A stretch of 64,000 bases of DNA. Origin: Chiloscyllium plagiosum. Taxonomy: Eukaryota. The notes under the pieces were generated by a model that saw only the letters and a list, made by a program, of their open reading frames with translations, had not been told where the DNA came from and made no database searches. The stretch spans positions 903,805 through 967,804 of the forward strand of contig NC_057756.1 in the NCBI RefSeq assembly GCF_004010195.1, given 5' to 3'. Positions 4,228 to 61,013 of this stretch are shown here, piece by piece; position 1 is the stretch's first letter; every line of letters begins with the position of its first letter. The translations under genes and the position numbers were made by a program.

Positions 4228-4254
4228 AGGAAAAGCTAAATGGGGAATTAAAAG
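4228..4254 (+). CDS. 27-nt micro-exon (EEKLNGELK)
   Basis: tttcattttattcaaag|AGGAAAAGCTAAATGGGGAATTAAAAG|gtattt; phase 1-1. Confidence 0.8.
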
Positions 4255-7200
4255 GTATTTGCAACAAACTGTCACAGATATTAGATCTTCTTTTATATGT
4301 TAATGATGCTCGAAAATGTCAAATCTTGAAGTGTTTTCGTTATTTTATTTCTGAGTCTTGTTTAGAAGGAAATGTGTGGCACGAGATCTGCCTGTCTATA
4401 AAGGGAAGTTGCAGTTCATGATACAAAAACAGAAGTAACTGGGGAATCTGAACAGCACATGTGGGAAAATAACAGGTTAACGTTTTGAATGCAGTGACCT
4501 CCTTCAGAAATGACAAGGGTAACTGGATTTAAAACATTAACATTATTCTCTGTTCCCAGATGCCACCATACAGGCAGTATTTATCCATCATTTTCTGTTT
4601 TTGCCTCAGATCTTCAGCCTTCGGACATCTTTTTTTCAAATAATTGCAGTTCATGATTTTGCTCTGGCTCTTCAATTTACGTTCATGGCTATGTTAGCTC
4701 TGGCATTTGCCTGAATTTCAGACAGGAAAACCCATCTTCGTTGGCACATGTTTCATAATTATTGATATTTTCTCTCTTATCTTCAAATATATTCATACGC
4801 TTATATCAAAGTTAATAGTTTGTCAAATATAGAAACTGTACATGAGGAAGAAGCCATGTTGTAAAACATTTATTTCTGTTTTTGCATTAACAATGTTGGA
4901 GATGAATTTATTTTCAGTTCATGGTAAGACAAAGCTTACACCTCTCCAAAGATTCTTTCTACATTTGTGAACAACCTTGATATGAAGAACTCTAACGTTC
5001 AAAATGCAGGTTTTATCTTTAACTAGCGAGAACAATGTACTGGTAACAAATCTAAAAAGAAATAATGAGATTAGTTTCTGAGATATACATACATCGCATA
5101 ATTGAATGCATTTCAAGTTATCTGCATGCTTCCTGAAGGTCCAAGGGATGTGTGATAACATTTTCAAATATATTAGATTATGGCAAATCTTGTCATGATG
5201 CACATTAAGGGGTAGTACCTGGCTGATAAGCAGAGTTAACTAGTGTTCTTTGGATGAAATTTCCGACATCTAAAATATTGAAAAAAAAGTGTTTTTAATC
5301 AAATAGTTTTATATTTGTTACATATCCTATTATTATGAGTTGCAGATATCCCACCATTGAATATAATTAAACATGAAACAGACACAGTTTGCTTTAAAGA
5401 AGGAAAAAATAGTGTTATAGAGAGCGAATTGTAAAATGGAGTTGAGGTTGAAGATTTTCCTTCATTACAGTGAGTGTCACAGCTCTGACAAAGAACGTTT
5501 AATTCTTCTTCTGTCCTTATTTACTATACTGCCAATTGTTTTTGTTTTATATTTGACAATTTAACCAGTGATTAAAACATTGGTTTTAATGGTTTGAAGT
5601 TAGACTGTCTTGAAACTGTTTCTTTTAAAAAAAGAAGTCTTGTATGAGTTGCATTCAATTCCCAGAAATAGCAACTTATGAATATACTGATGACCTTTGT
5701 CCATTATAGCAAAATAATGCTTCGTATCACTTCCCTTTTGCTGTACCTTCAAAGCTACTAACAACCCGACAAGGAACTATGCAGAGGAAGAAAGTAAGAT
5801 GCGGTAAAAAAAAAGACTGTGACCACCATTTCAAGTGCTTCTCTTAAGAAGAGCTTGCTACAGTAAAACCTCTATCATAAAAACATAGCAAAAATGTAAT
5901 TTGTGCCAAAGCCAATCCCTTTGCAAGTTGCAAATTTTCACCTGTTTGCTGTTTTGAATACTGAAGGTCTCAAAGATATATCAAGTCGATCTCAGTATTT
6001 CACAGAAACATAACAACTTTTATCGGCTAGCCTGCTCAGAATACATTAAGATTTTTGCCTGGGCACTAGTTTTTTTCCCCTTGTTTTTAAACCATAATAT
6101 AAAGTGTTTTGTTGCAGATGAAATTCTACTACAGAAACTACTTGACAAACTAACAATTTATTTAAACATCCCAGTTAAAATGCAACAAAATAACCAAGAA
6201 CGAATACCTTAATTCTACTGGAAAACTTAACAGAATATTAGATGCACTAACTTATACTGATAAACTGTTCCAATATGATATCATCCCATAAACAAACCTG
6301 TTAGCAAAAAGACAAATGCCAACAAATGCCAACATCCACTTTTCTCATATACAATTCAGCAGCAGCTAGAGAGAAAAATGAACCAAGTGAAAACTCAGAG
6401 AGGACCAACAAGGAAATATTTGGTGCAACCTCCAGCCCTGTTGAGACTCCATGAGCAGATGGTAAATCTAAATGCGATAAAACTATACAAAACACGAAAT
6501 TCTGATCCGTGAGAACTGGCCACACCTGTTCACTCTACTTCTGTTATTTCAACGTTTTAACAAAAACCGTAAACTCTTTACTACAGAATGGTTGCGATCT
6601 TTTATACCATCTTTCTCTTAAAAGAACCAAAGGGCAAAATAAATTTCAACGCTACAACATCGTTACAATATTGTCAAGACTAAAACATTCATCGTTGTTT
6701 GTATGGCTGATGATTATTCTTACATTTGTATTTTTTTCAAGTCCTTCATCTCCTCAAACTCTCTTCACTGGACTTTAAACAATTCTTGGTGTCAGTACTT
6801 CCATGATTGGCTGCAGTGCTTCCTATTCTATAAATTGAAAACGTGAAATTTACTCACTATTTATCCATGCATCTCTCTTCTGTTCAAAACTGTTTACAAA
6901 CAACATTTTTATTAACGTTAATTCATCACTTAATTGAAACGTTGGTAGTTGTTTTTAAAAAAAATCCTTTCACGTTTTTTTGTTCTAATACTTTCCAAAT
7001 ATAATACGGCACGCAATAATTCAATCTCGATGTGCTTTCGTTTCAGAAATAGAAAAACTGAAAGGTCAACTTGAAGACGTAGGTGCGTACAAATGATAGA
7101 AATTCGTGTTTCAGCTAGGTTTCTTGTGGCAGCCTATTTTTTTTTGAGTATCCGTTTTTCTTGAATACGTTGTATAGGTGGTTCTCCTGTTTTCCGAAGT

Positions 7201-10200
7201 TTGTGCTGCAGTGTGTGGTGGCTCGTTGGAATAGTGTTCTGAGACAGCTTCTTTTGTGTGTATTGTGTGTGTTACACTGACCAAATACTTAACTGCACAA
7301 GGAACCATCCCAAAACACGCAAACGAAGCTATATCAGAAAACTATTCCAACGAGCCACCACACACTGCAGCACAGACAAACTTCGGAAAACAGAGGAGAA
7401 CCACCTATACAACGTATTCAAGAAGAACGGATACTCAAAAAATACAGTCCGCAGATTCCTCAAGAACAAACCACGACAAGCAGACCAAACACAGCCAGAA
7501 ATCCTAACCACCTTATCATACATCAAAGAAGTTTCAGAAATGACAGCCAGACTACTAAGACCCTTCGGAATCCGAGTAGCACACAAACCGACCAACACTC
7601 TCAAACAAACGTAAAAGACTCAGTACAACCCATGGACAAAACCAATGTCGTCTACAAAATTCCACGCAAGGACTGCCACAAAGATTACGTAGGACAAAAA
7701 GGAAGAAAGTTAGCCACCAGGATACACGAACACCAGCCAGCCACAAAAAGACACGACCTTCTCTCCCTCATAGCCCTACACATGGATGAAAAAAAAGCAC
7801 CAATTCGACTGGGACAACACATCTATCCTGGGACAGGCTAAGCAAAGACATAGCAGAGAATTCCTAGAGGCCTGGCACTCCAACCACAACGCCATAAACA
7901 AACACATAGATCTAGATGCCATCTATCAACCCCTCAGAAAACGAACAGGAAATGACATCACCACAATCCCAGGAACACCATCCATGACAAAAAAAAAACA
8001 TATAAATTGAAAGCAGGAGACAACAGCTTCGCTTCACTTGGAGGTCGCCACTGATGATGTTACCTAGCCAGGTAAAGAAACGTCTGGGTATCAAACCTAC
8101 AGCTCTGCGAGCAATCCTACACCCAAAACCTCAACCTGAGCTACAAACCTTCACATATTTGATGTGTGTTCGTGGAACAAAATAAGTTGTGCAACTTCAA
8201 TCAACGACAACTCCACATATTTTCATATAACTTCTCTTAAAATGATCTATTATTGCATATTATGGAGGCATTGTTATCTTGTTACACCATTTTTCATATT
8301 GGCAGTTGTGACTTTACATTTTGCTGAGGATAGGTTCAGTGGGCGGTGCCAGATGCGGGTGGTGTGGTGAGGGCTGAGAACTCAGACCATTATTTAGTTG
8401 GAATCTTTATTGTCCAGTTGGATTGCTGCGACTTTGCCCAATGGCAGTGCCTTCGGAGTCATCGTTATCTAGAGCCTCAAATTGCCCTCTACGTCAGTTA
8501 AAATATATTGGCATTTACCTTCAAACTCTGAACGAGAGTTGTGGCTGTGGGTACCAAATACATAATTGTTTTTTTTCATGTAGAATAGCTCCTTGAACTA
8601 CGAATGCACTTGTTCATGGGTAAAAAAAGAAGTGTGCACAGAGACTTCGGTTGGGACACTGTTATGACTTGGCTCTGTTGACCAGGAACTGCTTCTGTTC
8701 TTAGTAATTCTCATGCACATATCGGCTCCCTTTCAATATGAAGAACCATTGTATTGTAAAATTTCTTTCTGCATCTTGTGCGGCCATCAGTTCACAGTGT
8801 GAGAGATTAAGTTCCGATGCAGCAAGCAGGATATTTTCACTATGCCACCAGACCTCCAAACACATCTCTCGAATATGAAGAGAACAAAATCGGATTNNNN
8901 NNNNNNNNNNNNNNNNNNNNNNNNNNNNNNNNNNNNNNNNNNNNNNNNNNNNNNNNNNNNNNNNNNNNNNNNNNNNNNNNNNNNNNNNNNNNNNNNNNNN
9001 NNNNNNNNNNNNNNNNNNNNNNNNNNNNNNNNNNNNNNNNNNNNNNNNNNNNNNNNNNNNNNNNNNNNNNNNNNNNNNNNNNNNNNNNNNNNNNNNNNNN
9101 NNNNNNNNNNNNNNNNNNNNNNNNNNNNNNNNNNNNNNNNNNNNNNNNNNNNNNNNNNNNNNNNNNNNNNNNNNNNNNNNNNNNNNNNNNNNNNNNNNNN
9201 NNNNNNNNNNNNNNNNNNNNNNNNNNNNNNNNNNNNNNNNNNNNNNNNNNNNNNNNNNNNNNNNNNNNNNNNNNNNNNNNNNNNNNNNNNNNNNNNNNNN
9301 NNNNNNNNNNNNNNNNNNNNNNNNNNNNNNNNNNNNNNNNNNNNNNNNNNNNNNNNNNNNNNNNNNNNNNNNNNNNNNNNNNNNNNNNNNNNNNNNAGAT
9401 TTAATCAGGAGGCGAGACCCGCATGGATGTAATTGAATTTTATTGGAAACGCCTTGAAATTCTTCTAAATTTGAGCGAGAAGAGGGATGGGTGAAACATA
9501 TCAGCAATGCTAACCTCCAATGCAAGAATACGGTTATGAATATTCTTCATCTTCAAAACATAATTTTGTCAGCTGAGCCTAGAGATACTTACTCAACAAA
9601 AATACTCATGCTGATGACAGAAACTACCTGGACTCTCAGCAACTTTGCATTGAATCAAGTCGAACCGGTTACAAATTGAAATAATTTCAAAGTTATGTCA
9701 TGCTTGTATGAAATCCTGCTGCAAATTAAAATGCTTGTGCAGGATGAATCGTTATATTCAATAAACATTCAATGAGAAGGAGATAAATGCTGGTGCAAAT
9801 TGGGATAACGTAAGTAGCAAACCAATTTGAACTATGATGACGAAAAGAAATTAAACAGAAGCTTGATCCTTTACACAGTTTCTAAAATACCAAAACATTC
9901 CAGCACAAAACAAAGGTTGTGCAGCATACAAACATTGTCTGATACCCAGGAAGCAATGCAAATCAAAAATTGCCAGCTGATGAAGATTTTCATGGAAGAA
10001 AATCAAAACATCGCTCATGCCTCTAACCCAGTCTTCACGTGCATTGGGGCATTCATCACCACTGCTGAACTTAATAATAATCATCCTGGTTGTTATGAAA
10101 ATAAAAATATCATAGGCTGGCAATGACTGAAAAGTACTTTGAATGAAGAAACTGTTCATAATATTCATGAAAATAATGTTCAAAAAGAATATGAAGGCAG

Positions 10201-13200
10201 AAAGAGAATAGTTTTGCCATGATTGCCTCAGCATTAAATTATTCTAATTACACCTAGTTGTTGGAAAGATAATAAGCATACTCTGAGTATTGCACTTATT
10301 ATGTAGACTAAACAGGAATTTCTAAAAGTGAAGTTATCCAGGACCAATAACATAGAAACCATAACATGAGCAAGAAGGAGTAAAAACTTTTCATTAAATT
10401 GTGTTGGAGGCCGAACTGAATGAATACTTATGAAAGTATTTGAGAAAGAGATAAATACCATTTGATTTAATTTATCTATGAGCCACAAACAAAATGAAAT
10501 AACATTGTGTTTAGAATCTCAATGTGAAATGAGGAAGCATGTTATGTTCGAAAAAAGTTTAACAATAAAATAAAAAGAGAAACAATTCTTTATGATCTAT
10601 TCTATCAACGTGCACTGTTGTAATGATTACCAGTTTGTGAAACTTGGTTGATATGTCGACATAGTGCTACAATTCTTGGTCATTCAACTCTTTGTCTATT
10701 GTTTCATTGACACTTCTCTTGCCATACACTGAATAAATCACAGGAACTCGCTGTTTTGAAAAAGAAAACCTCATAGCATTTTTGTTCATGTTCTTTATCA
10801 ATTTATGTTTATGTCCAATCTGTGTGCAGTTTTCTGACGTTAGAAATGTCTTTTTGTTTCTTTTGCTTACAATATCGCAATCCTTTGGCATGCTAAATTC
10901 CCCTTCAAATTTCCACGTAATAAATTATTTCTCGAGGGAGAATAATCCTAGCTCGCCAACCACTTTCCATAATCAGGATGATCGAACACAGTAACGTTGA
11001 AATTGAATCCTACTATATTCTTCCTAAGTTTGAATACATTGCATCAGTATGGCACCCATAACTGAGTGACAGCTACGTTTTCCGTGGACGGTTTACACTT
11101 TCAGCGAAGGGGTTTATGGTTTTTTGAGTGATCATACTCAAAGATAAATGCTCTAACTAATTTAATAAATTTTTGCTATGAAGTGAATGTGTCATGATGT
11201 ACAGATACAAATTTAGGGAATGAGTCAATAATGATGCAATTGTAAATTGTACATAATAATTAAATTACTGGAGAAACCCTGCCGATTTTGCAGGATCTGT
11301 GAAGAAAAATCAACGTTAAAGTTTCGAATTTACTGAGTCTTCTTCTGAACAATTGATTGTTTATGATCTTGGCACTCGTTCCTTTATATTATTGTGATGT
11401 AATTGTATACTGGAAAGTTTCAAGGAGCGGAATGGATCATTTTGTTTTACATCCTCGTCGTAATGCACTTTTATTTTTGTTATTTCATTTGACAGATATG
11501 GATAAACTGAAAAAGAACTGCAAAGAAATTGGTCAGTAGAATGGTATTTCGTGAATTTTAAAACCGTATTTTCAACATCTTACTGTATTCATAAATATAA
11601 GTTTCAAAGTCAATCGCGGTTGGAACTCCTACAACGAAAATTAAAAAGAAATGTAACAAATAGGGAAATGTGTGTTAATTGTGCAGACACAGGTGTTTAC
11701 CATGGAAATTCAGGCGAAACTGTGAAGTGTGAAATTTTGTTTAACTATAGATTTCAGGACAAACCTGTTGATTCTGATTTGACAGCATTTTACCATAGGA
11801 ATTTTAGTGCAGGTTTCACAACCCATCACTTCAATTATTTCGGTTGTCACATTACTACGTGACTGAAGTAGTTGCAAACTTGGGTAGCAATGTCCTCCAC
11901 CTCTCCTTCAGAGAAAGAGATAGATGTTGATTTTTGATGAAACTGCTGTAAGTTATTTCATCACAAAACATTTTTGAAACATCTATAGTAATCTATTATG
12001 ATTATATTGCACGCTAAGGAGTCTGGAGATAATTCAGAGAAAGAGATAGATGTTGATTTTTGATGAAACTGCTGTAAGTTATTTCATCACGAGACTAGGT
12101 AATATTCATTTGATTTGCAGACACAAAATTCATTGCTGCAATGATCGAACCAGTTAAAGCAACATAATTCACCGAATGTTTTTACAAGTAATTACATTAA
12201 TTGCATGGCAAAGTTTAAGCCTCAGTAAAATCAGCCACCTGGGTGCTACTGGAATTATTATTTTCTTGGAACTGTACATATTCCAGAAAAATCCAAATGT
12301 GTGCTGAAGAGTAACAAACGTGAACGATTTCCTGCTCCTTTGTCATTCTTTAATCAATGAATAATATTTCTATCTCATAGTAAAACTCTAATAGTTAAGT
12401 TCTGATCTATTGTGCAAATGCCACTAAATCCTTGCCACACACTGCCCAACGGTTTTCCACAAAACTGAAAATTGTGAAATGCATATGTGTTGATCTGATA
12501 CACAGTACTTGGGGAATACAAATATACATCTGTATGCTTTTTTGTCGAAATGCCAGCAGTGAATTGAGCCTTCAGATTCCGAATCACCCGCTTAAATCTC
12601 TCTGCTACTCCTCTTAAGACACAATTGAAAACATATTGTTTTGTCGAAGCATTTGGCATTTTAGACAAATATTTCTTTATCAAGTCTGTAACAGTATCTT
12701 AATAAAAGAAGCACAATTGTTAGTTTTTTATACAGTCTCAGAATATGAATATCTGCGATTTATGTTCCTTCTGTATTTTTTTTTTCGAATCATTGTAATA
12801 ATAGAAGTGGAGATCATACAGAAAAATGAAGGTAAAGACGATCATGGAGTTTATATTCATAATCTTTCAGTTCGAACGATATCTGAATTCAACCAACACG
12901 TGGACTTCCAATACATATCTATTTTAGTAATATAATACTGATATCATTTACACACACACACAAACGCACACACAATATATATGATATATATATTTATATA
13001 TAAGCTTCTTGTTCTGTGATCCTGATTCTTTTTATTGCTTACAGAAATAGAGAAATTGAAAAATCGTATTACAACTTGTGGTGAGTGGATTTAATTGATT
13101 CGGATTCTGAATTCACTGGCAAAACATTTTTGAAACATCTATAGTAATCTATTATGATTATATTGCACGCTAAGGAGTCTGGAGATAATTCAAAAGAGTG

Positions 13201-49200: not shown

Positions 49201-52200
49201 ATGCCAGGCTTACCTGTCTATCATTCACTTGCATTTCCTTGCCATATTTCCTAAATAATGGCACCACATTAGCTAAACACCAGCCTTCAAGCACTTCCCC
49301 AGTAGCTATTGATGGTGCAAATATCTCACCAAGGGTCACAGCAATCACTTCCTTAGCTAACCATAGAGTGTTAGGGTTCGCCTGATCAGGTCACGAGGTT
49401 TGATCCACCTTTATGCCTTTTAAGACGTCCAGCACCTTCTCCTCTGTAATATGGACATTTTTCAAGATGTTGTTATTTATTTTAGTTTTGGCAAAACATT
49501 TTCGAATGCATTTTTGTCTGAAGGCTTAGCATTCTTGTTCGTTACTTAAAACAAATTAAAATATAGAGAGAAACTGTGCAAAATTTGCCAATTTTAATCT
49601 AGCCATCATATTTGAGCATTGCTTCATTTTTTTTGCCGACCAAGTATGTGAATAACTCTGAGATCCAACAATGAGCTGCATTCCTCCACAACGATATACC
49701 AGTCTCAGTTACAATATGCTTGTCATCATTCAAGTATGAGCCTTTATTATAATATTGCATTGTCATGATATTCAGGGCAACTTTTAATATGAGAATAACT
49801 AATGAGGTTAAACTTCTTTCATACAATGATTATTGCAGTGCATTAATCCATTTGTGTCCCTGTTAGAACAACAAATGAACAAGAAAGACAGAGGTAATGA
49901 TATTCAGCTATGCCGTAATTCTTCACTTCTTAACAGTGGATAATCTGAAGTAATCTAAGGATTTGGAGCGTATGACAAAATATTCCATCCAACGTTGATA
50001 TGGTTATTAAGTAAATGCAATTGTAAGAGAAACCTCGGTCATCTGCCTTTCAAAGGAGAATTGAATTTAATGTTAAATCAAAATTGAGAGATGATTTGAA
50101 ATGACCATTATGAGACGTTTAACTCAAAACTGCATATGAAGGAAATAGTTGAACTGGTGAAAAGTTGGTTGTCATAGTGTATTTCTTTTTAAGTTTATTG
50201 CCAAAAAAAAACAAGATCATATCCATTCCTGTTTTCTTCTGTGGAATATACCACCAAAACCGAGATACTGAGACAATCAGTAATAACATTTGAAGTGTAT
50301 GCAGCTTACCTTGTAGAAGTAGAAATGGAAGTCAGAAACAAATCATTTAATGTGTTTTTCTATTATTCTGTTAATTCGTTTTGGAAGTAATCCAATAAAC
50401 AACTCTGTATCAACATTTTTTCTGCGGTGCGCGAGGTGTTTTATTTTCTCTGTATCTATCCTGTGGAATGCACAGATAGAAGGCACATTTTCATTAACCT
50501 GCAGTTAACATTAACCCTCTGTTTTGTTCTACATCCACCGTTAGAACTGGAAAAGTTAAGGAAGAAGCTTCAAGATTGTGGTGAGAATGGATTTGCTTTA
50601 AAGCATGCTGCTTCTTTTTTCGTCTTGAACTCTAAATATTATTGTAATTATTTTTGGGCTAATTCATCAATTTCTTCTTGCCTGAAGTATAATGATGCGA
50701 GAAATATGAAACTGCTCTAGTCAGGAGCCAGTGCCAATCTAGTCTGCAATGTAAAGTTTCAATCCATTTAAAGTTCTATTAAAGTGATCTGAAGTTAATG
50801 TCTGGTGCCAAAATGACACCAATTCACCAACGGTTTTGCTTCAGGCTATAGACATCCCAGATGAACTGAATACAAAACTGCTGACATTAGCGGATGAAAA
50901 TGTGAATTTAAACGTTAAAAAGCATTAGATATATAAGTTCAATTTAAAAAGATAGATTTCACAGACTTCTCTCCCACTTCCGTGATAGTTGATCTAATTG
51001 TGGTTTTTCAGAAAATTTGAAAATTTCACAAGTTGATCGATTATATGAGGAGAAAGTGAGGTCTGCAGATGCTGGAGATCAGAGCTGGAAATGTGTTGCT
51101 GGAAAAGCGCAGCAGGTCAGGCAGCATCCAGGGAACAGGAGAATCGACGTTTCGGGCATAAGAAGGGCTTATGCCCGAAACGTCGATTCTCCTGTTCCCT
51201 GGATGCTGCCTGACCTGCTGCGCTTTTCCAGCAACACATTTCCAGATCGATTATATGAGTCAGCTTTACTATTCAGAAGGGGACACAATGTATCTTGTTC
51301 TGGCAATCAGTCATATAAAGTAAAATGATAAATTTTGCAAAACTAACACGTTGTAAAATCAATCATAATTCAGCTAACTTTCACTAAACTTTATTAATCT
51401 GCTGTCGCCTTCTTTGTCCAATGGTGTTCCTCCTTAAGCAATTGGACAATGTTTTTTGATTTTTGATTTCATGTCACGCAAATGCCTTTTCCCAGCCTAC
51501 CTCGATAATATCTTTAAGCTACATAGTTAACCAAGGTACCTACTTCAAAATCACTTGAGAGCAGTTTAATTGTGAAGCAACTGGAAATCTTCTGTTTAGT
51601 TCTGCAGTTAACAAATATGAAATGTTATCTACAAGAGTTTCTGATCCACAGCCTCTCCTTTACTGATGACAATGTTCATTCAAACATGTCAAATTGACCA
51701 ATATGTTGTTATATAAGCTGACGTGGCTCGTAGTTAAATTATATTTACTACTTCCTCCTGTGGACCTTGAATACTTAATTTTATTTAAGAAAAACTATGT
51801 AGCCATAAGTTTTATTGGAATTGACTTCAGTATCAATAATATCCCTCTTAGAACAGAAATTAATTTCAGATGAGAAAGGTAAGTGTGTGCATCAATTTAA
51901 TTCTTTAACTGATTTGAAACCCTCAGAATCTTCCAAAACTGGATGGATAAGCAGTTGAAATGTCATATAATTAAAGGCTAAGGACCACGTGCTGCAAAAT
52001 GGGTCTGGTGTGGATTATTCTCCCTCCTTATTGGAACTTGCTTTCTGATCAAATATTCATTTACAGTTTCCAGGTTTTTTCTTGTTTGCGCCATAAAACT
52101 GCATATTATAACTATAGCGGATAATCCATTAGATTGATCTGAAGCTTATGCACCAAAGAAGAATAGATTACTTCGATATTTGTCGCAATTATTACTCATG

Positions 52201-55200: not shown

Positions 55201-58200
55201 CAATTTATTAAATTGCTTGCACCCAAAAGATATGTTTTCCGGATTGCCAGATTTTTCTCTCATCTGCTCTAAGCACTGATCTTAAATCAATGCCCCCGGA
55301 CTTAAAATCCTCCTTCCTGTTAATCCTGTCCCATTTCAATTTTCTCTCCTTTATGGAAGACAAATCCCATCAGTCCAATCTCTCTTCGTAACTGGAACTG
55401 TCCTTCACAGACGACATTTTAATAAATCGCCTGTGCACCTTCTCCAGTGCTATCCCAACCCTCCAAACAATGTGACTTCCAGCACTGCACAGAATGCTTC
55501 AACTGTGGTGGAGCTAACGTTGTCTACAGTTCCAGTATAGCCTTGTAGTTCACAGACTCCTTGCCTCAGAGAATAAAGGAAAGTCTTCCATATTTCTTCT
55601 TAATGATGATAACGTCCTATCTTGAACTTTAAGGAACTGCTTTAGATAAAAAGAAACTAAGTTTTCTGTATTCTTCGCAGTTTCCCAGGGCATTAATATT
55701 AAGCATACATTCTCTTATCTTTCTCTTTCCAGCTAAAGTGCATCGGCTCATATTGATCTCGATTGAATTCTGTTTTCCACTGATTAGCACGTTTTATTAG
55801 TCCGAATTTTGTTATTTGTTTGCTGTGTCGTCCAAATAGTCGTCCTTTGCCTTTAGTTTTACCTTTCCAAGGAATCCAGTTCAAATATGTCCGCACATTC
55901 TTGTGTTTGCAAAGTACCTTTCATTCAATTAACGTTTTGGCTGCAATGTTTTATTTCAATTTACTACAGCAAAATGTCATCTCAGTCAATTAAACTTGAC
56001 ACTAAGCCAATTACATTATTGATATTTATGGGGTGTTCATTTCATGTTTCTTTTAACCAATGCAACCTAATCGTTTGTGCTTTTGCATCTAAGAATGTTA
56101 CTTCATTTAAATCGGTTACAATCATTTTAAATAGACGATCAACTGTATAAGTTACAGCGTGGTAAGCACCACTTTCTCTTTGAAGTCTGAATATGCTGTA
56201 GCAAGCAAATTGACTTCTTGATAATATATTGTCTAACTAAAATGAATTACTAAATGTCATGGTAGTTGTGAATGAAATTAGTAAGGTGCTCATTTATCTC
56301 AAAGTAAACAAGCATACAAACAAACTCGGAGTTTAATCATAGTTGCCATAATGCCTGTTCTGTAATAGCTGAGAACTTCAGAACTTTGAAACATACCAAA
56401 GGGAGTGCAGCAGAGCTTCACTAGGTTCATTCATTAGAAACCAAGACTTTTCTAGGAACGAAGCTTATTGCAACAGGACCTGGTTTTACGACACTTTACA
56501 AGGATGAGACAGTACAAGGATGAGACTGTAGATTCGAAGCAACAAGATCATTTCCCTGGTTGTACAATCTAGGACTGTGAATGCATTCTCAGGAAAAGAT
56601 GTAGGCCAGGTTGAAACTGAGAAAGGAGGACACAAGAGCAGAGAATTAAATAAAAAGAGAGAAAGCAACTTTAAGGCAACTCATTTAAGTGCACCAGAAC
56701 TTCTGGATTGTAATATAAAAGAATGATGGGTTATTAAATCAATTATTGATTACAAATATATAACTGAAAATAAATAATTGTAAAACAAGCAGGCAGCTAA
56801 TAGCATTCCAACATTGAGAACAGAGGGAAATAGACAGGAGCTTAGCCCTTGAAAGTCAAAGCTGGAGGAAAACATGTTTGGTGCATCATGTGATTTTTTT
56901 TTCTTCAACTAAAACCAGGAGAAAAGCATTCCAGTAACGGGGAAAGTGAGCAAGAAACTATTCTGATTTAACAACCCATTCCCCTCTTCTCACATATGGA
57001 AGCACGGTCACTCAGTGGTTAGCACTTATGCCTCACAGTGCCAGGCACCAGGAGTAATCCCACTGTTGATTGACTGTCATGGAGTTTGCACATTTTCCCC
57101 ATGGCTGTGTAGGCCTTCGGTGGAGGTTCTGGTTCCCTCCCAGAATCTAAAGAAGTGTAGGTCTGTTAGATTGGCCATGCTAATCTTTCCGTAGTGTGCA
57201 CGGATGTACAAATCAGACGGATTAGCTATGGTGAGTACAGTGTTACGGAGTTAAGGTGGTAGTCTCATGGGATGCTGCTTGGGCAATTGTTTCAGAATCA
57301 ATGGACAGAATAACCTCTCTCCACTCTATTGGGATCCTATGCTGCCCTAAACTTCTTATTATCCACAACAGGCTCTGAATGTAAAAAGTCGATTGAGTAC
57401 GCAGCAAATTGATCTGGTGGTGATTAGTTGTTAAAAAAAAAACAAAAAAAATGGCTTCCAGTGATTTGATGAAGAGACAAACAACAGCCATTCAGTCGTG
57501 TTCGAGAGTTCTTCTATATACTTTTTTCAAAAGAACAACAAAATCAAGTTGGCTATTAAAAATTCCAGGTAGTGTGCTACGGAGACTGTCATTGCTGGTG
57601 AATATCAACAGCTCTTCAATGGCTATGCTTGTGCCCGGGTGTCCTTCAACAACTAGCATGCGGTCGCCACCAAGACTCTTGGTGCCTTTAGACAAAGGTG
57701 GACCCCATAGCAGATGGAGTACTTTATCTCTCTGTCCAACTCCATCTTGATTTAGCTCCCTCTCCCCTCCCACCTCTCTACCTCTGCCTCTCGCGTTATA
57801 ATTTGCGCTGACCTTAATGGACTTTGCACATTAGTTACATAATTGCAAATAAAATGATTTCGTGATGGGCATTAAATTATAAAGGAGAAAAAAAGCACCA
57901 GTGATTTTGCGATTAAAAAAATACAGATTGTCTAAAAAAAAGTAAAGGATAAACATAAATCTGGAAAGATTAAGACATTTTGTCAAATAACATTAAATAC
58001 TTCAATAACCTATCACCCACGGAAACAATAAGTGAAGAAATCAGCAGCATTAAATCATGGGCAAAAATGGTGGAATAGGTTGGAAATGAGAAAGGCATAT
58101 GATGCATGCTTACTTCATAATTTTTAATGGTGTTTGAAAAAAAGCATGAGCAGGGTAAATGTTAGTGAAAGCGTAGAAAGGAGAGGCAATGGATGGAGTA

Positions 58201-61013
58201 AACGATGAGGCAAGGTATGGGGAAATGCTGGCTAAGACCATGTTGGATGAAACCTCCTACTCAGGTGGCTCACACCTACATTTGGCAAAGGGATTGGTTT
58301 GGTAAAAGCAGGAAGTTTTCTTATAAAGTCAATACATTTCAAAGTTACTACGGGCTGCGGGTGAACATTGCTCATTGAAACATTAGATAACCGAAGCTCC
58401 AAAAAGAAAGGACAGGACAATCCAAAAGTGTTAAGAATTAGAGATCATTCATTTTGTCCTCAGTTTCATGCGAGAATTTTTTTTTTTAGAAAAAATGAGT
58501 TAAAGCTTAACATTTATTTGGAGAACGTTGAGTTGATGAAGAATACAAAGATTTGAACTGTAAAAGTTATTTCTTTCTTAATTAGCTCAGTTGATTTTTT
58601 TTTATTTACCCTAACTATATTGACATCATAGACGATGCTTACATGGATCTGAAAAAGAATATATTTAGTGCAGTTATTCATAAGAGGTTAATTAACAATG
58701 CACTTCGGGATTTTCGCAGAGACCGGAAGTTGTAGCTTATCAACCATATTAATATTGTGATCTTTGGAGAGTAATTCATTTCCTGAATATACCACCGTTC
58801 CATCAATTCACGTGGGCAAGATGCCTGGAGCTCTCTTTAAAAGCATTGAGGGTGCCCCAATCAAATAATTCTCCAGTTGTTGACTCATGGGGTTGGCGAT
58901 GCAGAGACTGCTTAGATTTAAGTAAACTCGTGGATTTAGACAAAGATGGACCCCACTTGCGAAAGTTTCACCCTATTTATAATTACAGATTAACAGTCTG
59001 TAATTTAGCTGTTTGGTCATGATCAAGTTAAGAGACCAAGACAGTTCAAATTGCTTTGCCCAGTGCATTGTCAGTGTTTCTTAAATCTTCCTAATCTAAC
59101 TCAATGTCAATGCCTTCATTGCATCAGAAAGCGAATCCCTGAAAAAGAAGATTCAACTTTTAGGTAAGGAAATGTTTGGAACTTCTTTGGTCTATGTTAC
59201 AAACCAATTAACGTAAATGGATTAAAAAAGGAAATGTCACTTCTAAAAGCTTGGTTTGTGAATGTCATTCTTGGAGATTTTCTGGTAGATCTTATTTGGA
59301 AAGTAACAAATGGTGTACAAATGTTATAATAACAGAATACTATTGAAATTCTGTGCCAACATCAGAAGAGAAACTGAAAGAGAAAGAGAAAGGTAAATGA
59401 AAAGATGCAGTTGCATTCCGTGCTCTCTTCCATCTGAATTTCGACGATTGCTTAAACACTCCTGTAATTGTGCTTTAGAAATTAAAGCTAAAGTCTCAGA
59501 TGATGGTGAGTAGGAATTAATTATGAAGGAAAACATGTACTGACACCGATGGTAATCACAATTCAACTGAAAATTAAACATCATGCTGGAAGTTTCCACA
59601 CTTCAAGAATATTGAAAGTGAAAGAATGCTTTGCGGTGTGCCTCACTAAAAGCTTCCTGGCTCTGATAAAGTAATGATTACTCTTTTTTGGTCAGATTCA
59701 TTAATCCACAAGTATTCAGGAGCGATTCTTCGAAGTTACACCTGATGAAATGTTAACCACAACAAAGAGTCTAACGTTGGAGCAAATAACTGCAGATGCT
59801 AGAATTTGTACCGAAAGCAAAAATAAATACAAGAGTTCACAGCGGGGCAGGCAGCATCCTTCGAGAGAGAGCAAGCTGACGTTTTGAGTCTGGGTGACTC
59901 TTCATCAGAGTTGAACTGAAGTATGGAGGAGGCAGCACTTATGCAATACTGGTGAGGGAATTGGAGTGTTGGGGGAGAAAGGATGTTAACAGTTCAGATT
60001 TAGTGATCGAAATGTAAGAAGGGCAGAACAACGGTGTCTCTAACTGCCAGACTGGCAAGAATATGCCGTCCCACTGGAGTGGGGGAAGGGAAGAGGGGCA
60101 TGGTTACAGAGAATGTAACAAGCAAAGCTGAAGGAAGGGGAACGAATGTTTTCAGAATCTGAAGGCGTTCAACTCAATGTTTAGACCAGAAGGTTGTAAA
60201 GTGTTTTGCTGGAGCATTTCAAGAAGAGACAAGTTGCATGAGCGCAGAACACTGTATTACATTGACTGGCATTGGGACGATCACAGTTATGCTTGCATAC
60301 AGACTGGAGGTGTTCTGCAAACGGGTCATCCAGTATGTGTTTCGTTTCTGCAATGAAAGTCGGATGATTGGGTGCAGCGAATCCAATACAAAAATTGGAG
60401 AAGGTGTAGTTGAAATGGTGCATCACCCAGAAACATTGTTTGGGGCATTGGATTGTGAGCAGGGAGGATGTGAAAGAGCAGTTGTTGTACCTTCTGCGAT
60501 TATATGAGAAGATGCTGTGGGAAGGGGTGGGATTGTTGGTCGAGGAGTTGACACCTAATGTTAAAGTATTATCCACAAGGTTGTATTTCTACAGGTTGTA
60601 GGAATCACTGACTCCTTCCCTCCAAAGTTAATCTTTCCTACTGACTGTATAGCAGTTCCTTAGTAGTGCAATATATTTTACATCTGAATTCTTGATCCCA
60701 AGGCAGGTCAAATGAACTAACATTTTTTTTATGTCAGAGGCCAGTGTATGAAAGCGTGATCCATACTTGACAATATGTATGTTACAATGAATTGTTGCAT
60801 TTATGTAAAGGTTGGATCAATAAAGTATGGATAATACAGTAGAAAGATAAAAGGAACGGAAGGTCTGTGTGGAAACAACGGTATATCAGCAAATGTTTTC
60901 CTAATTTTTGCTTCTATGGTTGTTGTTGACATGTCGGAATGTGAAGTTCACCTCAACGTATTATATTTCACTTTGTCAATTTGCAGGAGAGGCGCTACGT
61001 GAAAAGAACTCAG
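4228..61013 (+). CDS. Internal portion of an unidentified multi-exon gene: 22 alternating 27/36-nt phase-1 micro-exons encoding a long coiled coil (about 231 aa; 5' and 3' ends outside the window)
   Basis: Every exon is flanked by AG (usually after a pyrimidine-rich tract) and GT. Lengths are only 27 or 36 nt. The spliced frame is stop-free: EEKLNGELK/EIEKLKGQLEDV/DMDKLKKNCKEI/EVEIIQKNE/EIEKLKNRITTC/EEDLTKKQK/EILKMKGAYSEC/EEKIKAKQK/EINTLKTDLETS/EQKFTNKQK/SIDKLKDTLNEL/ETKLNQKAT/ECENLKENVESK/DQALAKKDK/ELEKQKKTNIDC/EERLSTEAK/EVQKMKTKYNDQ/EQQMNKKDR/ELEKLRKKLQDC/EQKLISDEK/ESESLKKKIQLL/GEALREKNS. The first residue assumes an upstream G. Confidence 0.9.
4420..4625. repeat. Decayed Penelope-derived hairpin repeat
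   Basis: Imperfect inverted arms (aaaaacagaa...ttaacgtttt / aaaacattaa...ttctgttttt), similar to 36775-36925. Confidence 0.5.
7047..7082 (+). CDS. 36-nt micro-exon (EIEKLKGQLEDV)
   Basis: gctttcgtttcag|AAATAGAAAAACTGAAAGGTCAACTTGAAGACGTAG|gtgcgt. Confidence 0.9.
7111..8155 (+). mobile_element. Penelope-like element: GIY-YIG 3' part with an inverted 5' duplication
   Basis: ORF fragments TNVVYKIPRKDCHKDYVGQKGRKLATRIHEH (GIY-YIG) and HQFDWDNTSILG...REFLEAWHS; about 7141-7255 is the reverse complement of about 7322-7443. Confidence 0.9.
8048..8087 (+). ncRNA. Minimal hammerhead ribozyme motif in the Penelope 3' terminal region
   Basis: cca-CTGATGA-tgttacct agcc aggtaaa-GAAAC-GTC-tgg: conserved core, stem II ttacct/aggtaa, stem I cca/tgg. 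Confidence 0.7.
8897..9396. other. Assembly gap (500 N)
   Basis: N run. Confidence 1.
10515..10541 (+). other. Candidate 27-nt exon with a non-canonical donor (ESQCEMRKH); decayed exon or sequence error
   Basis: ttgtgtttag|AATCTCAATGTGAAATGAGGAAGCATG|ttatgt. It lies in the only interval where a 27-nt exon is missing, and the donor reads TT instead of GT. Confidence 0.4.
11496..11531 (+). CDS. 36-nt micro-exon (DMDKLKKNCKEI)
   Basis: tttcatttgacag|ATATGGATAAACTGAAAAAGAACTGCAAAGAAATTG|gtcagt. Confidence 0.88.
11907..12090 (+). repeat. 58-nt perfect direct repeat flanking a segment identical to 13120-13192
   Basis: 11907-11964 = 12033-12090; 11964-12036 = 13120-13192. Confidence 0.9.
12805..12831 (+). 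CDS. 27-nt micro-exon (EVEIIQKNE)
   Basis: ttgtaataatag|AAGTGGAGATCATACAGAAAAATGAAG|gtaaag; weaker acceptor, with a T-tract a little upstream; fits the alternation. Confidence 0.72.
13045..13080 (+). CDS. 36-nt micro-exon (EIEKLKNRITTC)
   Basis: ttttattgcttacag|AAATAGAGAAATTGAAAAATCGTATTACAACTTGTG|gtgagt. Confidence 0.92.
13478..13665 (+). mobile_element. Decayed HE1-like SINE fragment
   Basis: ggattgtccatgctaaattg...gtcagtgtagacccgatgggcagaatggcc resembles the other SINE copies. Confidence 0.55.
14257..14880. mobile_element. LTR-like interspersed repeat
   Basis: Ends ...ccataaca; its end matches, in reverse complement, the fragment tgttatggaccaggccagacccctcaaaacatttc at about 40761-40818. 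Confidence 0.5.
14881..15330 (-). mobile_element. CR1-clade LINE 3' end
   Basis: Tail cataacataggagtggaagtaaggccattcggcccatcgag followed by ORF2 C-terminal-like sequence on the minus strand. Confidence 0.75.
16022..16048 (+). CDS. 27-nt micro-exon (EEDLTKKQK)
   Basis: ttttctttatttttag|AGGAAGACCTGACCAAGAAACAGAAGG|gtatgt. Confidence 0.9.
17906..17941 (+). CDS. 36-nt micro-exon (EILKMKGAYSEC)
   Basis: tttgtttatctatag|AAATACTGAAAATGAAAGGTGCATACTCCGAATGTG|gtgagt. Confidence 0.9.
18520..20212 (+). mobile_element. 5'-truncated CR1 LINE (RT to 3' end), interrupted by a SINE
   Basis: ORF 18797-19141 SGVLQGSVLCPLLFIMYINDVD...KFADETKV (RT motifs); continues in ORF 19431-19679. Confidence 0.92.
19138..19440 (-). 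mobile_element. HE1-like / V-SINE nested in CR1
   Basis: Same core as 689-972. Confidence 0.85.
20829..20855 (+). CDS. 27-nt micro-exon (EEKIKAKQK)
   Basis: ccattgcttacag|AGGAAAAGATAAAGGCTAAGCAGAAAG|gtgagt. Confidence 0.9.
20896..22287. mobile_element. Penelope-like element: two GIY-YIG/3' segments in inverted orientation
   Basis: Minus ORF 21004-21513 AIYKIPCKNCNRHYIAQIGNKLATRIHEH, with a homologous + copy at about 21470-22287. A possible 11-nt TSD, ataaaagaaaa, lies at 20885-20895 and 22288-22298. A CTGATGA...GAAAC motif lies at about 22214-22244. Confidence 0.9.
23072..23278. repeat. Penelope-derived hairpin repeat
   Basis: Inverted arms; same family as 51050-51245. Confidence 0.75.
23672..23707 (+). 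CDS. 36-nt micro-exon (EINTLKTDLETS)
   Basis: ctcctttacttgacag|AAATAAATACACTGAAAACCGATTTAGAAACTTCTG|gtaagt. Confidence 0.92.
23805..24135 (-). mobile_element. HE1-like SINE
   Basis: ggaggaaacccaggcagaaacagggagaatatgcaaactccacag core. Confidence 0.8.
25000..25330 (-). mobile_element. HE1-like SINE
   Basis: gaggaaacccacacagacacggggagaatatgccaactctacag core. Confidence 0.8.
25382..25408 (+). CDS. 27-nt micro-exon (EQKFTNKQK)
   Basis: ttattgtttgttacag|AACAAAAGTTTACCAACAAACAGAAGT|gtaagt; the only exon ending in T. Confidence 0.9.
25640..25810. repeat. Second family of Penelope-derived hairpin repeat
   Basis: Arms ttatagtacaacaggttta...tttgtcag / ctgacaaa...taaacctattggactataa around a gctagctagc centre; decayed hammerhead-like ctgacaaaggagcagcactccgaaagct on the minus strand. 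Confidence 0.6.
26600..26635 (+). CDS. 36-nt micro-exon (SIDKLKDTLNEL)
   Basis: ttcttattattttacag|CTATCGATAAGCTGAAAGACACTCTTAATGAACTAG|gtgggt. Confidence 0.9.
29295..29321 (+). CDS. 27-nt micro-exon (ETKLNQKAT)
   Basis: tgtgtttcatttag|AAACAAAGTTAAATCAGAAGGCTACTG|gtaagt. Confidence 0.9.
29487..32060 (-). mobile_element. CR1 LINE with internal deletions (ORF2 pieces plus an ORF1-like remnant)
   Basis: Minus ORFs 29622-30026, 29987-30304, 30217-30450 (SKFADETKIGG) and 30845-31165; catagagt tail at about 29487. Confidence 0.92.
32302..32337 (+). CDS. 36-nt micro-exon (ECENLKENVESK)
   Basis: ttgcttactccccag|AATGCGAAAACTTAAAGGAAAATGTTGAATCTAAAG|gtacac. Confidence 0.85.
32695..33192. repeat. Penelope-derived inverted-repeat element
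   Basis: Arms agagtcaaaaagtgtgg...cttcatca / ctgatgaag...cacactttttgactct. Confidence 0.7.
34813..34839 (+). CDS. 27-nt micro-exon (DQALAKKDK)
   Basis: tttaattgtcctag|ACCAAGCATTAGCAAAGAAAGATAAGG|gtgaga. Confidence 0.83.
35295..36110. mobile_element. Penelope-derived element: hairpin plus internal fragment plus terminal repeat
   Basis: Hairpin at about 35300-35497 containing ctgatgaagggcttttacccgtaacgtc; a third terminal copy at about 35985-36110. Confidence 0.7.
36775..36925. repeat. Short Penelope-derived repeat fragment
   Basis: aacaaaaacagaaatagctggaaac...cagagttaccatttcgggtccagtgaccc, then cctgctgaacttttcccagctattt. Confidence 0.5.
38239..38274 (+). CDS. 36-nt micro-exon (ELEKQKKTNIDC)
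   Basis: ctcgttgcgccatcag|AATTAGAGAAACAGAAAAAAACTAATATTGACTGTG|gtgagt. Confidence 0.9.
39210..39860 (-). mobile_element. CR1 LINE 3' fragment
   Basis: Minus ORFs 39484-39717 (LERIQKRVT...GLSYEEKL...RGDLIEVYK) and 39642-39854. Confidence 0.85.
40313..40339 (+). CDS. 27-nt micro-exon (EERLSTEAK)
   Basis: catatattttgcag|AAGAAAGACTGAGCACAGAAGCAAAAG|gtgact. Confidence 0.87.
40820..41960. mobile_element. Old, heavily decayed CR1-like fragments (+ then -)
   Basis: Recognisable remnants such as gttaagtgagtggg...gttatacacttc...ctggagtattg...ttttggtccc; no long ORF. Confidence 0.5.
43600..43635 (+). CDS. 36-nt micro-exon (EVQKMKTKYNDQ)
   Basis: tctttgttctgtag|AAGTTCAGAAAATGAAAACCAAATACAATGATCAAG|gtgagt. 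Confidence 0.92.
44330..47395 (+). mobile_element. Near-complete CR1 LINE ORF2 (endonuclease + RT), disrupted by frameshifts and stops; 12-N gap at 44559-44570
   Basis: ORFs 45840-46268 (ANVVPLFKK...PGNYKPVSLTSVV...QHGFVRGKSCLTNL), 46228-46776 (SGVSQGSVLGP...SKFADNTKIGG) and 46806-47051; ctctatgactct tail. Confidence 0.95.
47520..47850 (+). mobile_element. HE1-like SINE with a tRNA-derived head
   Basis: ggcacagtggctaagtgg...ctgctgcctcacagc...ggttcgaatccagcc (A/B-box-like) followed by the V-SINE core. Confidence 0.8.
47925..49470 (-). mobile_element. CR1 LINE fragment
   Basis: Minus ORFs 47896-48144 (VWNELLDEVVESGTIATFKRQLD), 48586-48810 and 49148-49348 (LANVVPLFRK). Confidence 0.9.
49867..49893 (+). 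CDS. 27-nt micro-exon (EQQMNKKDR)
   Basis: tttgtgtccctgttag|AACAACAAATGAACAAGAAAGACAGAG|gtaatg. Confidence 0.87.
50545..50580 (+). CDS. 36-nt micro-exon (ELEKLRKKLQDC)
   Basis: ctacatccaccgttag|AACTGGAAAAGTTAAGGAAGAAGCTTCAAGATTGTG|gtgaga. Confidence 0.92.
51050..51245. mobile_element. Young non-autonomous Penelope-derived hairpin insertion with a 15-nt TSD
   Basis: Perfect 78-bp inverted repeat 51085-51162 / 51168-51245; direct repeat gatcgattatatgag at 51035-51049 and 51245-51259. Confidence 0.9.
51852..51878 (+). CDS. 27-nt micro-exon (EQKLISDEK)
   Basis: atccctcttag|AACAGAAATTAATTTCAGATGAGAAAG|gtaagt. Confidence 0.9.
53150..53890 (+). mobile_element. CR1 LINE 3' fragment
   Basis: EHRRLRGELKDVYKIMRG in ORF 53378-53629; 3' end similar to the other CR1 copies. 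Confidence 0.85.
56996..57340 (+). mobile_element. HE1-like SINE
   Basis: gcacggtcactcagtggttagcact...cctcacagtgccagg...ggagtttgcacattttcccc. Confidence 0.8.
59128..59163 (+). CDS. 36-nt micro-exon (ESESLKKKIQLL)
   Basis: ccttcattgcatcag|AAAGCGAATCCCTGAAAAAGAAGATTCAACTTTTAG|gtaagg. Confidence 0.9.
59780..60545 (-). mobile_element. Decayed Penelope-like fragment (GIY-YIG end plus terminal region)
   Basis: Minus ORF 60181-60576 IAETKHILDDPFAEHLQSV; terminal tgcagatgct...gacgttttgagt...cttcatcag, as in the hairpin families. Confidence 0.65.
60987..61013 (+). CDS. 27-nt micro-exon (GEALREKNS)
   Basis: ctttgtcaatttgcag|GAGAGGCGCTACGTGAAAAGAACTCAG|gtaagt. Confidence 0.88.

Follow-up and report, generated by a model that had tools for sequence, protein, structure and literature searches.

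Guinea pig enterophilins possess a long leucine-zipper (heptad) rod followed by a B30.2 domain; they are mammalian and far shorter than the protein treated here, to which they are likened by description. Enterophilin-1 has been linked with SNX1/EGFR (PMC13749957). In chicken, the BG tail is encoded by many 21-nucleotide (nt) exons with a split first codon, the heptad lying over two exons and each gene containing 13–36 exons, and a soluble form of the tail regulates actin-myosin (PMC5938342, PMC4046983). Butyrophilins (BTN/BTNL) possess heptad repeats and then a C-terminal B30.2 domain (PMC4046983, PMC12841164). In this study, we analyzed a stretch of 64,000 nucleotides from Chiloscyllium plagiosum (assembly GCF_004010195.1, contig NC_057756.1, positions 903,805–967,804 of the forward strand), called the window. 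The results suggest that the window is the middle of a single gene, predicted to span 537 kb, in which ~151 micro-exons probably encode a parallel coiled-coil rod followed by a B30.2 domain. The two exon classes that alternate along the rod are probably kept in alternation by selection.

The gene and chicken BG share a long coiled-coil tail encoded by numerous very small exons, each with its first codon split, and the proposed rod may be likened to a much elongated BG or butyrophilin tail. However, BG exons are 21 nt (a few are 18 or 24 nt), one heptad each, whereas those of the gene are mostly 27 or 36 nt. An Ig-V domain and a transmembrane segment are also part of BG, which is described without a B30.2 end. 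In contrast, the gene has two alternating exon classes, ~150 exons and a B30.2 end, and no Ig or transmembrane exon was found in it, N gaps being present upstream. Butyrophilins differ in having few heptads, in their Ig domains and transmembrane segment, and in a B30.2 domain of another clade. By analogy, the gene appears to work like the heptad-exon tails of BG and butyrophilins, yet it lies outside both groups by exon size and B30.2 clade.

The micro-exon array and its terminal exon

Exons were predicted by a splice-site scan for short, stop-free AG..GT segments, all in phase 1 and on the + strand. Window coordinates are extended beyond its ends (negative, upstream), and the contig is called C47 (window, C47:903805–967804). 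When 591 kb was scanned, 144 candidates scored >19 on the gene strand and 1 on the opposite strand. The 144 candidates are 27 nt (77), 36 nt (55), 15 nt (6), 21 nt (5) and 33 nt (1) in length and extend from -446240 to +88200, the first micro-exon found being at C47:457564 (-446240). From 157 candidates with a score >15, 7 that were weak or repeat-like were removed by hand and 1 was added, which gave 151 exons. Canonical splice sites are present in all predicted exons of the gene, and the median intron is 2.3 kb. The joined micro-exons form 1,491 codons with no stop upstream of the B30.2 domain, and their reading frame continues into the B30.2 exon. The predicted rod of ~1,490 residues would be ~220 nm long if it were one continuous helix.

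The terminal exon lies at +90715 (C47:994519–995039), 27 kb downstream of the window end, and its 173 codons and stop encode a B30.2/SPRY domain. Pfam SPRY was detected above the cut-off (E = 6.6e-07) on a 129-amino-acid part of this exon. Against PDB, 91 sequences were matched at E ≤ 0.001, the best being BTN3A1 (E = 2.4e-22). The domain is 98% identical to chiPu_0007878 of Chiloscyllium punctatum. Within the fetched 864 kb, this is the only B30.2 exon.

Register classes of the micro-exons

For positions 7047–61013 of the window, the initial annotation described a strict alternation of 36- and 27-nt exons. We clustered the 83 peptides of the 27-nt exons without supervision and without regard to position. 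Two groups were obtained. Class Y comprises 57 peptides in which residue 4 is hydrophobic, and class X the other 26, most of which are similar to the first part of a 36-nt exon. The 36-nt exons were counted as X; the 15- and 21-nt exons were placed in Y manually. Of the 143 junctions, 126 join exons of different class, whereas 10,000 shuffles gave a mean of 71 and a maximum of 91. Since the 36/27 lengths alternate at only 89 of the 143 junctions, we replaced the length rule with the class rule; the alternation thus holds for register classes and not strictly for length. In the part from -265171 to +70822, alternation holds at 98 of 100 junctions, and N gaps (8897–9396 and 64212–66460) lie at the other two; these gaps are predicted to conceal a Y and an X exon, respectively.

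The two classes occupy different positions in the heptad. X exons (36 nt, sometimes 27 nt) start at g with Glu or Asp, followed by a hydrophobe at a. Y exons (27 nt, sometimes 15 or 21 nt) begin at e, with Leu in the a position and either Lys or Cys in the d position. The regular 3′ part contains 49 paired units: 34 of 21 residues, 7 of 18, 4 of 17, 2 of 14 and 2 of 19. A pair had been held to equal exactly three heptads; this applies to 34 of the 49 units (~70%) and does not apply to the rest.

In coiled-coil geometry, an insertion of +4 (stutter) or +3 (stammer) is compatible with the helix, +1 and +5 are more demanding, and +2 and +6 break helices (PMC4786415). Pairs of 21 or 14 residues are in register, and the 18- and 17-residue units match the +4 and +3 insertions of that report. 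In all, 47 of the 49 units are +0, +3 or +4, so that most length variants are of a tolerated type. The report concerns protein geometry, whereas in the gene every discontinuity corresponds to an exon-length variant. By arithmetic, loss of one 36-nt exon shifts the register by +2 and loss of one 27-nt Y exon by +5, which in the same classification are the most strained and a demanding shift, respectively. This supports the earlier proposal that a lone exon upsets the register. Taken together, the register logic of the initial annotation is right in a broader, class-based form.

A heptad model trained on the 36+27 units alone found 13 register jumps. The six +4 jumps coincided with or adjoined 18-residue units, the three +3 jumps fell in 17-residue units and two +5 jumps in 19-residue units; the remaining two (+5 and +2) were at the two N gaps. 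With a higher penalty, 10 jumps were found. Separately, we observed that 6 stutter and 4 stammer units are interleaved from -154079 to -17242, with a small net drift of the register.

The features of the window are as follows.

1–64000, + strand: whole window inside one gene, both gene ends lying outside the window
4228–4254, + strand: Y-class exon, 27 nt, just 5′ of the span described in the initial annotation
7047–7082, + strand: X-class exon, 36 nt
8897–9396, strandless: assembly gap of 500 N, which likely conceals a missing Y exon between 7047 and 11496; register jump of +5
11496–11531, + strand: X-class exon, 36 nt
12805–12831, + strand: Y-class exon, 27 nt, weak acceptor
13045–13080, + strand: X-class exon, 36 nt
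16022–16048, + strand: Y-class exon, 27 nt
17906–17941, + strand: X-class exon, 36 nt
20829–20855, + strand: Y-class exon, 27 nt
23672–23707, + strand: X-class exon, 36 nt, collinear match in paralogue A
25382–25408, + strand: Y-class exon, 27 nt, collinear match in paralogue A
26600–26635, + strand: X-class exon, 36 nt, collinear match in paralogue A
29295–29321, + strand: Y-class exon, 27 nt
32302–32337, + strand: X-class exon, 36 nt, weak donor, collinear match in paralogue A
34813–34839, + strand: Y-class exon, 27 nt, collinear match in paralogue A
38239–38274, + strand: X-class exon, 36 nt, collinear match in paralogue A
40313–40339, + strand: Y-class exon, 27 nt
43600–43635, + strand: X-class exon, 36 nt
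49867–49893, + strand: Y-class exon, 27 nt
50545–50580, + strand: X-class exon, 36 nt, collinear match in paralogue A
51852–51878, + strand: Y-class exon, 27 nt
56135–56161, + strand: possible orphan Y-class exon, 27 nt, acceptor very weak, similar to a paralogue A exon
59128–59163, + strand: X-class exon, 36 nt
59366–59392, + strand: Y-class exon, 27 nt
59479–59505, + strand: X-class exon, 27 nt, forming an 18-residue (stutter) unit with 60987
60987–61013, + strand: Y-class exon, 27 nt

The span 7047–61013 contains 11 exons of 36 nt and 12 well-scored exons of 27 nt. A thirteenth 27-nt candidate at 56135–56161 is weak (acceptor score 0.4, donor score 10.9). Length alternation is broken by the consecutive 27-nt exons 59366, 59479 and 60987, and the exons at 7047 and 11496 are both 36 nt, with the 500-N gap in between. 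Candidates at 37881, which contains a stop codon, and 57195, which fits poorly, were discarded. Tandem Repeats Finder reported nothing relevant in the window. The intron at ~7300–8150 carries a decayed retroelement fragment, which by eye is similar to the GIY-YIG endonuclease of Penelope-type elements.

The heptad spacing of hydrophobes claimed for positions 2, 5, 9, 12 and 16 of the unit was present. In the 10 complete 36+27 units, L/I/V/M/F/C occurs at these positions in 9, 9, 7, 7 and 10 units, respectively, as compared with at most 2 of 10 at each remaining position and none at position 19. The 210 residues from 11496 to 59392, analyzed without candidate 56135, gave a spectral peak at period 3.50 with a power of 31.9. 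This value was reached in none of 1000 shuffles of exon order (mean 2.3, maximum 17.7), and residue shuffles gave at most 5.9. The 3-4 spacing places a at 2, 9 and 16 and d at 5, 12 and 19.

Position 19, which is residue 7 of the 27-nt exons, had been reported as K, E or D in all 11 such exons. This is correct for 11 exons, but the span contains 12 that are well scored, and 59479 has Ser. Because K/E/D account for 53% of the residues of these exons overall, the preference for Lys is more informative. Of the 57 Y exons of the whole gene, 39 have Lys at position 19 and 8 have Cys, the latter all lying in the 5′ third. The Cys residues support the assignment of position 19 to the putative core (d). 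The initial annotation proposed that the charged core residue sets oligomer state or flexibility, which may apply to this lysine. Of 137 g-e′ pairs, 46 are attractive and 11 repulsive, although the split codon in part dictates Glu/Asp at g. This charge pattern is the one expected of a parallel in-register bundle.

Paralogues and relatives of the gene

The genome holds five family members, namely the gene and four further loci (two on C47 and two on C37), all with phase-1 arrays of 27- and 36-nt exons. X and Y alternate at 26 of 34 junctions in paralogue A (p = 0.0012) and at 27 of 38 in paralogue B (p = 0.0097). At the C37 paralogue, 40 exons were chosen by hand from 46 candidates, and 37 of the 40 match the catshark protein model XP_038671249.1 in order, mostly abutting. 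Because of this match, micro-exon calls of this kind are taken as real coding exons, and their number appears to be stable between distant sharks.

Paralogue A lies at C47:4577501, and its B30.2 domain is 59% identical to that of the gene. Its array and that of the window are collinear over window positions 23672–59392, except for an additional X27+Y27 pair in paralogue A. The window seemingly retains the Y member alone (56135, with the poor acceptor), with a possible X remnant near 55732. The alignments behind this are weak (58 versus a control of 53, and 41 versus 33). Contigs of two other individuals bridge the 56135 site with no indel. The candidate is either a counter-example to the alternation rule or an orphan undergoing silencing. 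Indels relative to paralogue A are mostly even-numbered; this was discarded as evidence, since evenness follows from aligning exons only within their own class. At C47:4420004 and 4444791, paralogue A has two 27-nt exons with identical peptides and scores, 25 kb apart with N gaps between them. These may be a recent duplication or an assembly artefact.

A midpoint-rooted B30.2 tree was built, the rows of the family being selected for their similarity to the query. The five loci cluster in it with catshark, basking shark, electric ray, skate and chimaera models on a single branch of length 0.83 (100/100). The sample also contained 20 TRIM and 16 butyrophilin-type domains, all of which lie outside this branch, and in this sampled tree the domain does not group with those of butyrophilins. 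When a family profile was applied to 402 fetched proteins, 22 scored >140: the query, 19 from cartilaginous fishes and 2 unnamed. The models of the clade include XP_038671249.1, XP_038668997.1 and XP_038672306.1 from catshark, XP_069775384.1 and XP_069797409.1 from Narcine, XP_055510696.1 from skate, XP_042191566.1 from Callorhinchus and GCC29436.1 from Chiloscyllium punctatum (98% identical B30.2).

Besides the common B30.2 clade, a modular rod is shared in the one pair compared: XP_038671249.1 and the C37 paralogue have the same 9- and 12-residue modules in order. The models are named TRIM39/58/69-like or A33-like in the databases, yet no RING or B-box is listed for them, and the domain listing of the relatives contains PF00622 alone. 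They are much shorter than the protein predicted here, and at least one lacks its 5′ part. Among open-access papers, subscription journals being outside the scope, the listings searched contained no description of the family. As a side observation, the Amia ocellicauda protein P0277 has a hydrophobic segment, a coiled coil and a B30.2 domain, and is outside the clade by profile score.

Selection, cellular location and splicing

Based on these results, a continuous gene with a rod under selection is the reading that we consider probable. The array would have expanded long ago as blocks with an even number of exons were duplicated in tandem, and selection on the protein would eliminate any gain or loss that spoils the hydrophobic seam. 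The micro-exons may mostly be spliced constitutively, so that the rod length would be set in the genome and not by splicing. We lean slightly towards a cytoplasmic protein. By an equally slight leaning, the rod could act there as a tether or spacer that keeps paired B30.2 heads off an N-terminal anchor. As to the biological role of the gene, any proposal is a guess.

Several points weigh against this reading. The exons of the gene are predictions; when four runs labelled or guessed to be RNA were compared with the last exons and the B30.2 exon, two of them raw-read runs sampled to ~2% and ~6%, repeats or nothing were covered, which is evidence neither way. The exon set and the Y assignment of the 15- and 21-nt exons also depend on the choices by hand described above, and the scan yielded no first coding exon. 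The 5′ third of the array, which has Gly/Pro linker exons, is irregular and holds 15 of the 17 non-alternating junctions. The two 19-residue units (+5) are of the demanding type, and candidate 56135, if included, makes a Y-Y junction. Within the 5′ third, a block of three 27-nt exons (81 nt, Gly/Pro linker) was duplicated at -347 and -333 kb. Finally, two observations would agree with an extracellular protein: 37 of 49 cysteines are at d positions, and the N-terminus of the skate model XP_055510696.1 is hydrophobic and signal-like.

The last two points, together with the 5′-cut database models and the N gaps at -484390 and -501138, favor a membrane-anchored or secreted protein, either a BTN/BG-like receptor with Ig and transmembrane exons that escaped detection or a secreted fibre held together by d-d′ disulfides. 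Since the models are cut at the 5′ end, their missing signal peptide is weak evidence; the array of the C37 paralogue continues ~78 kb upstream of the start of the catshark model. We regard such a protein as possible, though doubtful. Motif scans upstream of the array detected no RING, B-box or Ig motif, N gaps being present, and tblastn with butyrophilin and TRIM sequences against the fetched 864 kb, which includes assembly gaps, gave no match except the B30.2 exon. As neither RING nor B-box was found in these 864 kb, where gaps remain, the gene is not classified as a TRIM. The sequence from -520 kb to the first micro-exon, N gaps excepted, contained no exon that convincingly encodes a signal peptide or transmembrane segment, and short-peptide tblastn with the N-termini of the relatives gave nothing credible. 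The sole good signal-like exon (-549841) was dropped as the gene start; the exons that follow it are Cys-rich and Ly6/uPAR-like, and it belongs to a neighbour. The first micro-exon itself has an in-frame ATG in good context. For two paralogues, ~320 kb and ~400 kb upstream of the B30.2 exons were read, and their 5′ ends lie beyond.

The initial annotation predicted pairwise alternative splicing as a length tuner, in which X/Y pairs are skipped together and the rod is adjusted in three-heptad (~3.1 nm) steps. All exons are symmetric in phase 1, the register arithmetic favors pairs, and alternative isoforms exist in relatives. In four database isoform sets of relatives (14 sequences), however, none of the six distinct internal deletions (9, 9, 9, 9, 7 and 6 residues) is an X+Y pair. 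Two of the six are the last segment before the B30.2 domain. Thus, single-exon skipping apparently occurs in family models, and pairwise skipping was not seen in the isoforms of these relatives. The deletions do not refute pairwise skipping in the rod, because none is clearly inside a regular 36/27 run. Nevertheless, introns within and between pairs are kilobases long and no exon-coupling feature was found. Moreover, 15 of the 49 units are not 21 residues, and the alternation would need no splicing mechanism, as protein-level selection on genomic duplications would suffice. Pairwise splicing is therefore unsupported, and we judge it unlikely. A broader scheme seems similarly unlikely: an exon-level grammar of geometry with alternating g- and e-start exons, whose length variants serve as modules for heptads (21 or 14 residues), stutters (18) and stammers (17), unwinding and overwinding that roughly cancel, coupled splicing, a pair-tuned B30.2 ruler of at most ~220 nm, and silencing of the partnerless 56135 through acceptor decay. 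Independently, 29 of the 151 exons (24 of which are 27-nt Y exons) start with NAG, which provides tandem acceptors able to drop one residue.

Alternatively, the alternation might have persisted without selection, as a neutral remnant of the duplication of a single ancestral 36+27 cassette. Tandem duplication of a pair was seen once, and the collinearity of paralogue A with the window agrees with such a history. Intron similarity identified recent duplications in only three exon sets of the gene, scores between exons <300 bases apart being overlap artefacts: the 36+27 pair at -275 and -265 kb in the rod, the three-exon linker block mentioned above, and three single 21-nt exons in the linker preceding the B30.2 domain. 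If blocks began and ended in introns at random, roughly one half of them would contain an odd number of exons, yet almost every junction of the regular part alternates and almost every unit there is +0, +3 or +4. Similarity has been lost in the introns around most exons, so there was time enough for odd events. In the comparison across the gene, the window exons retain no intron-level similarity to other exons and are therefore old. A neutral relic is accordingly improbable. As a further observation, exons 16 places apart are weakly alike, which hints at an old 16-exon duplication.

That the locus is a pseudogene, or several shorter genes not spliced together, is very improbable: a close relative is annotated with the B30.2 exon only (chiPu_0007878, 178 amino acids), but the stop-free joined codons, the canonical splice sites, the single B30.2 exon in 864 kb and the paralogue exons that match the catshark model in order all oppose it.

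The neighbour upstream extends from -549841 to -536170 (C47 ~354,000–367,600) and consists of a signal-peptide exon and Cys-rich exons; we presume that it is Ly6/uPAR-like. G protein-coupled receptor genes, which we take to be GPR139-like, flank the locus at -515 kb (- strand), -496 kb (+ strand) and +153 to +155 kb. The upstream pieces resemble a first and a second exon and are on opposite strands around an N gap, so that a local misassembly is possible.

The rod under selection in one continuous gene, which we prefer, points to a cartilaginous-fish family whose genes are very large and which is represented in databases only by short, misnamed models. The one-heptad-per-exon design of BG and butyrophilins would here be extended to a two-class scheme in which exon length sets the geometry of the helix. 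With ~100 consecutive junctions under one register rule, the array may serve as a natural test of how protein structure filters exon gain and loss.

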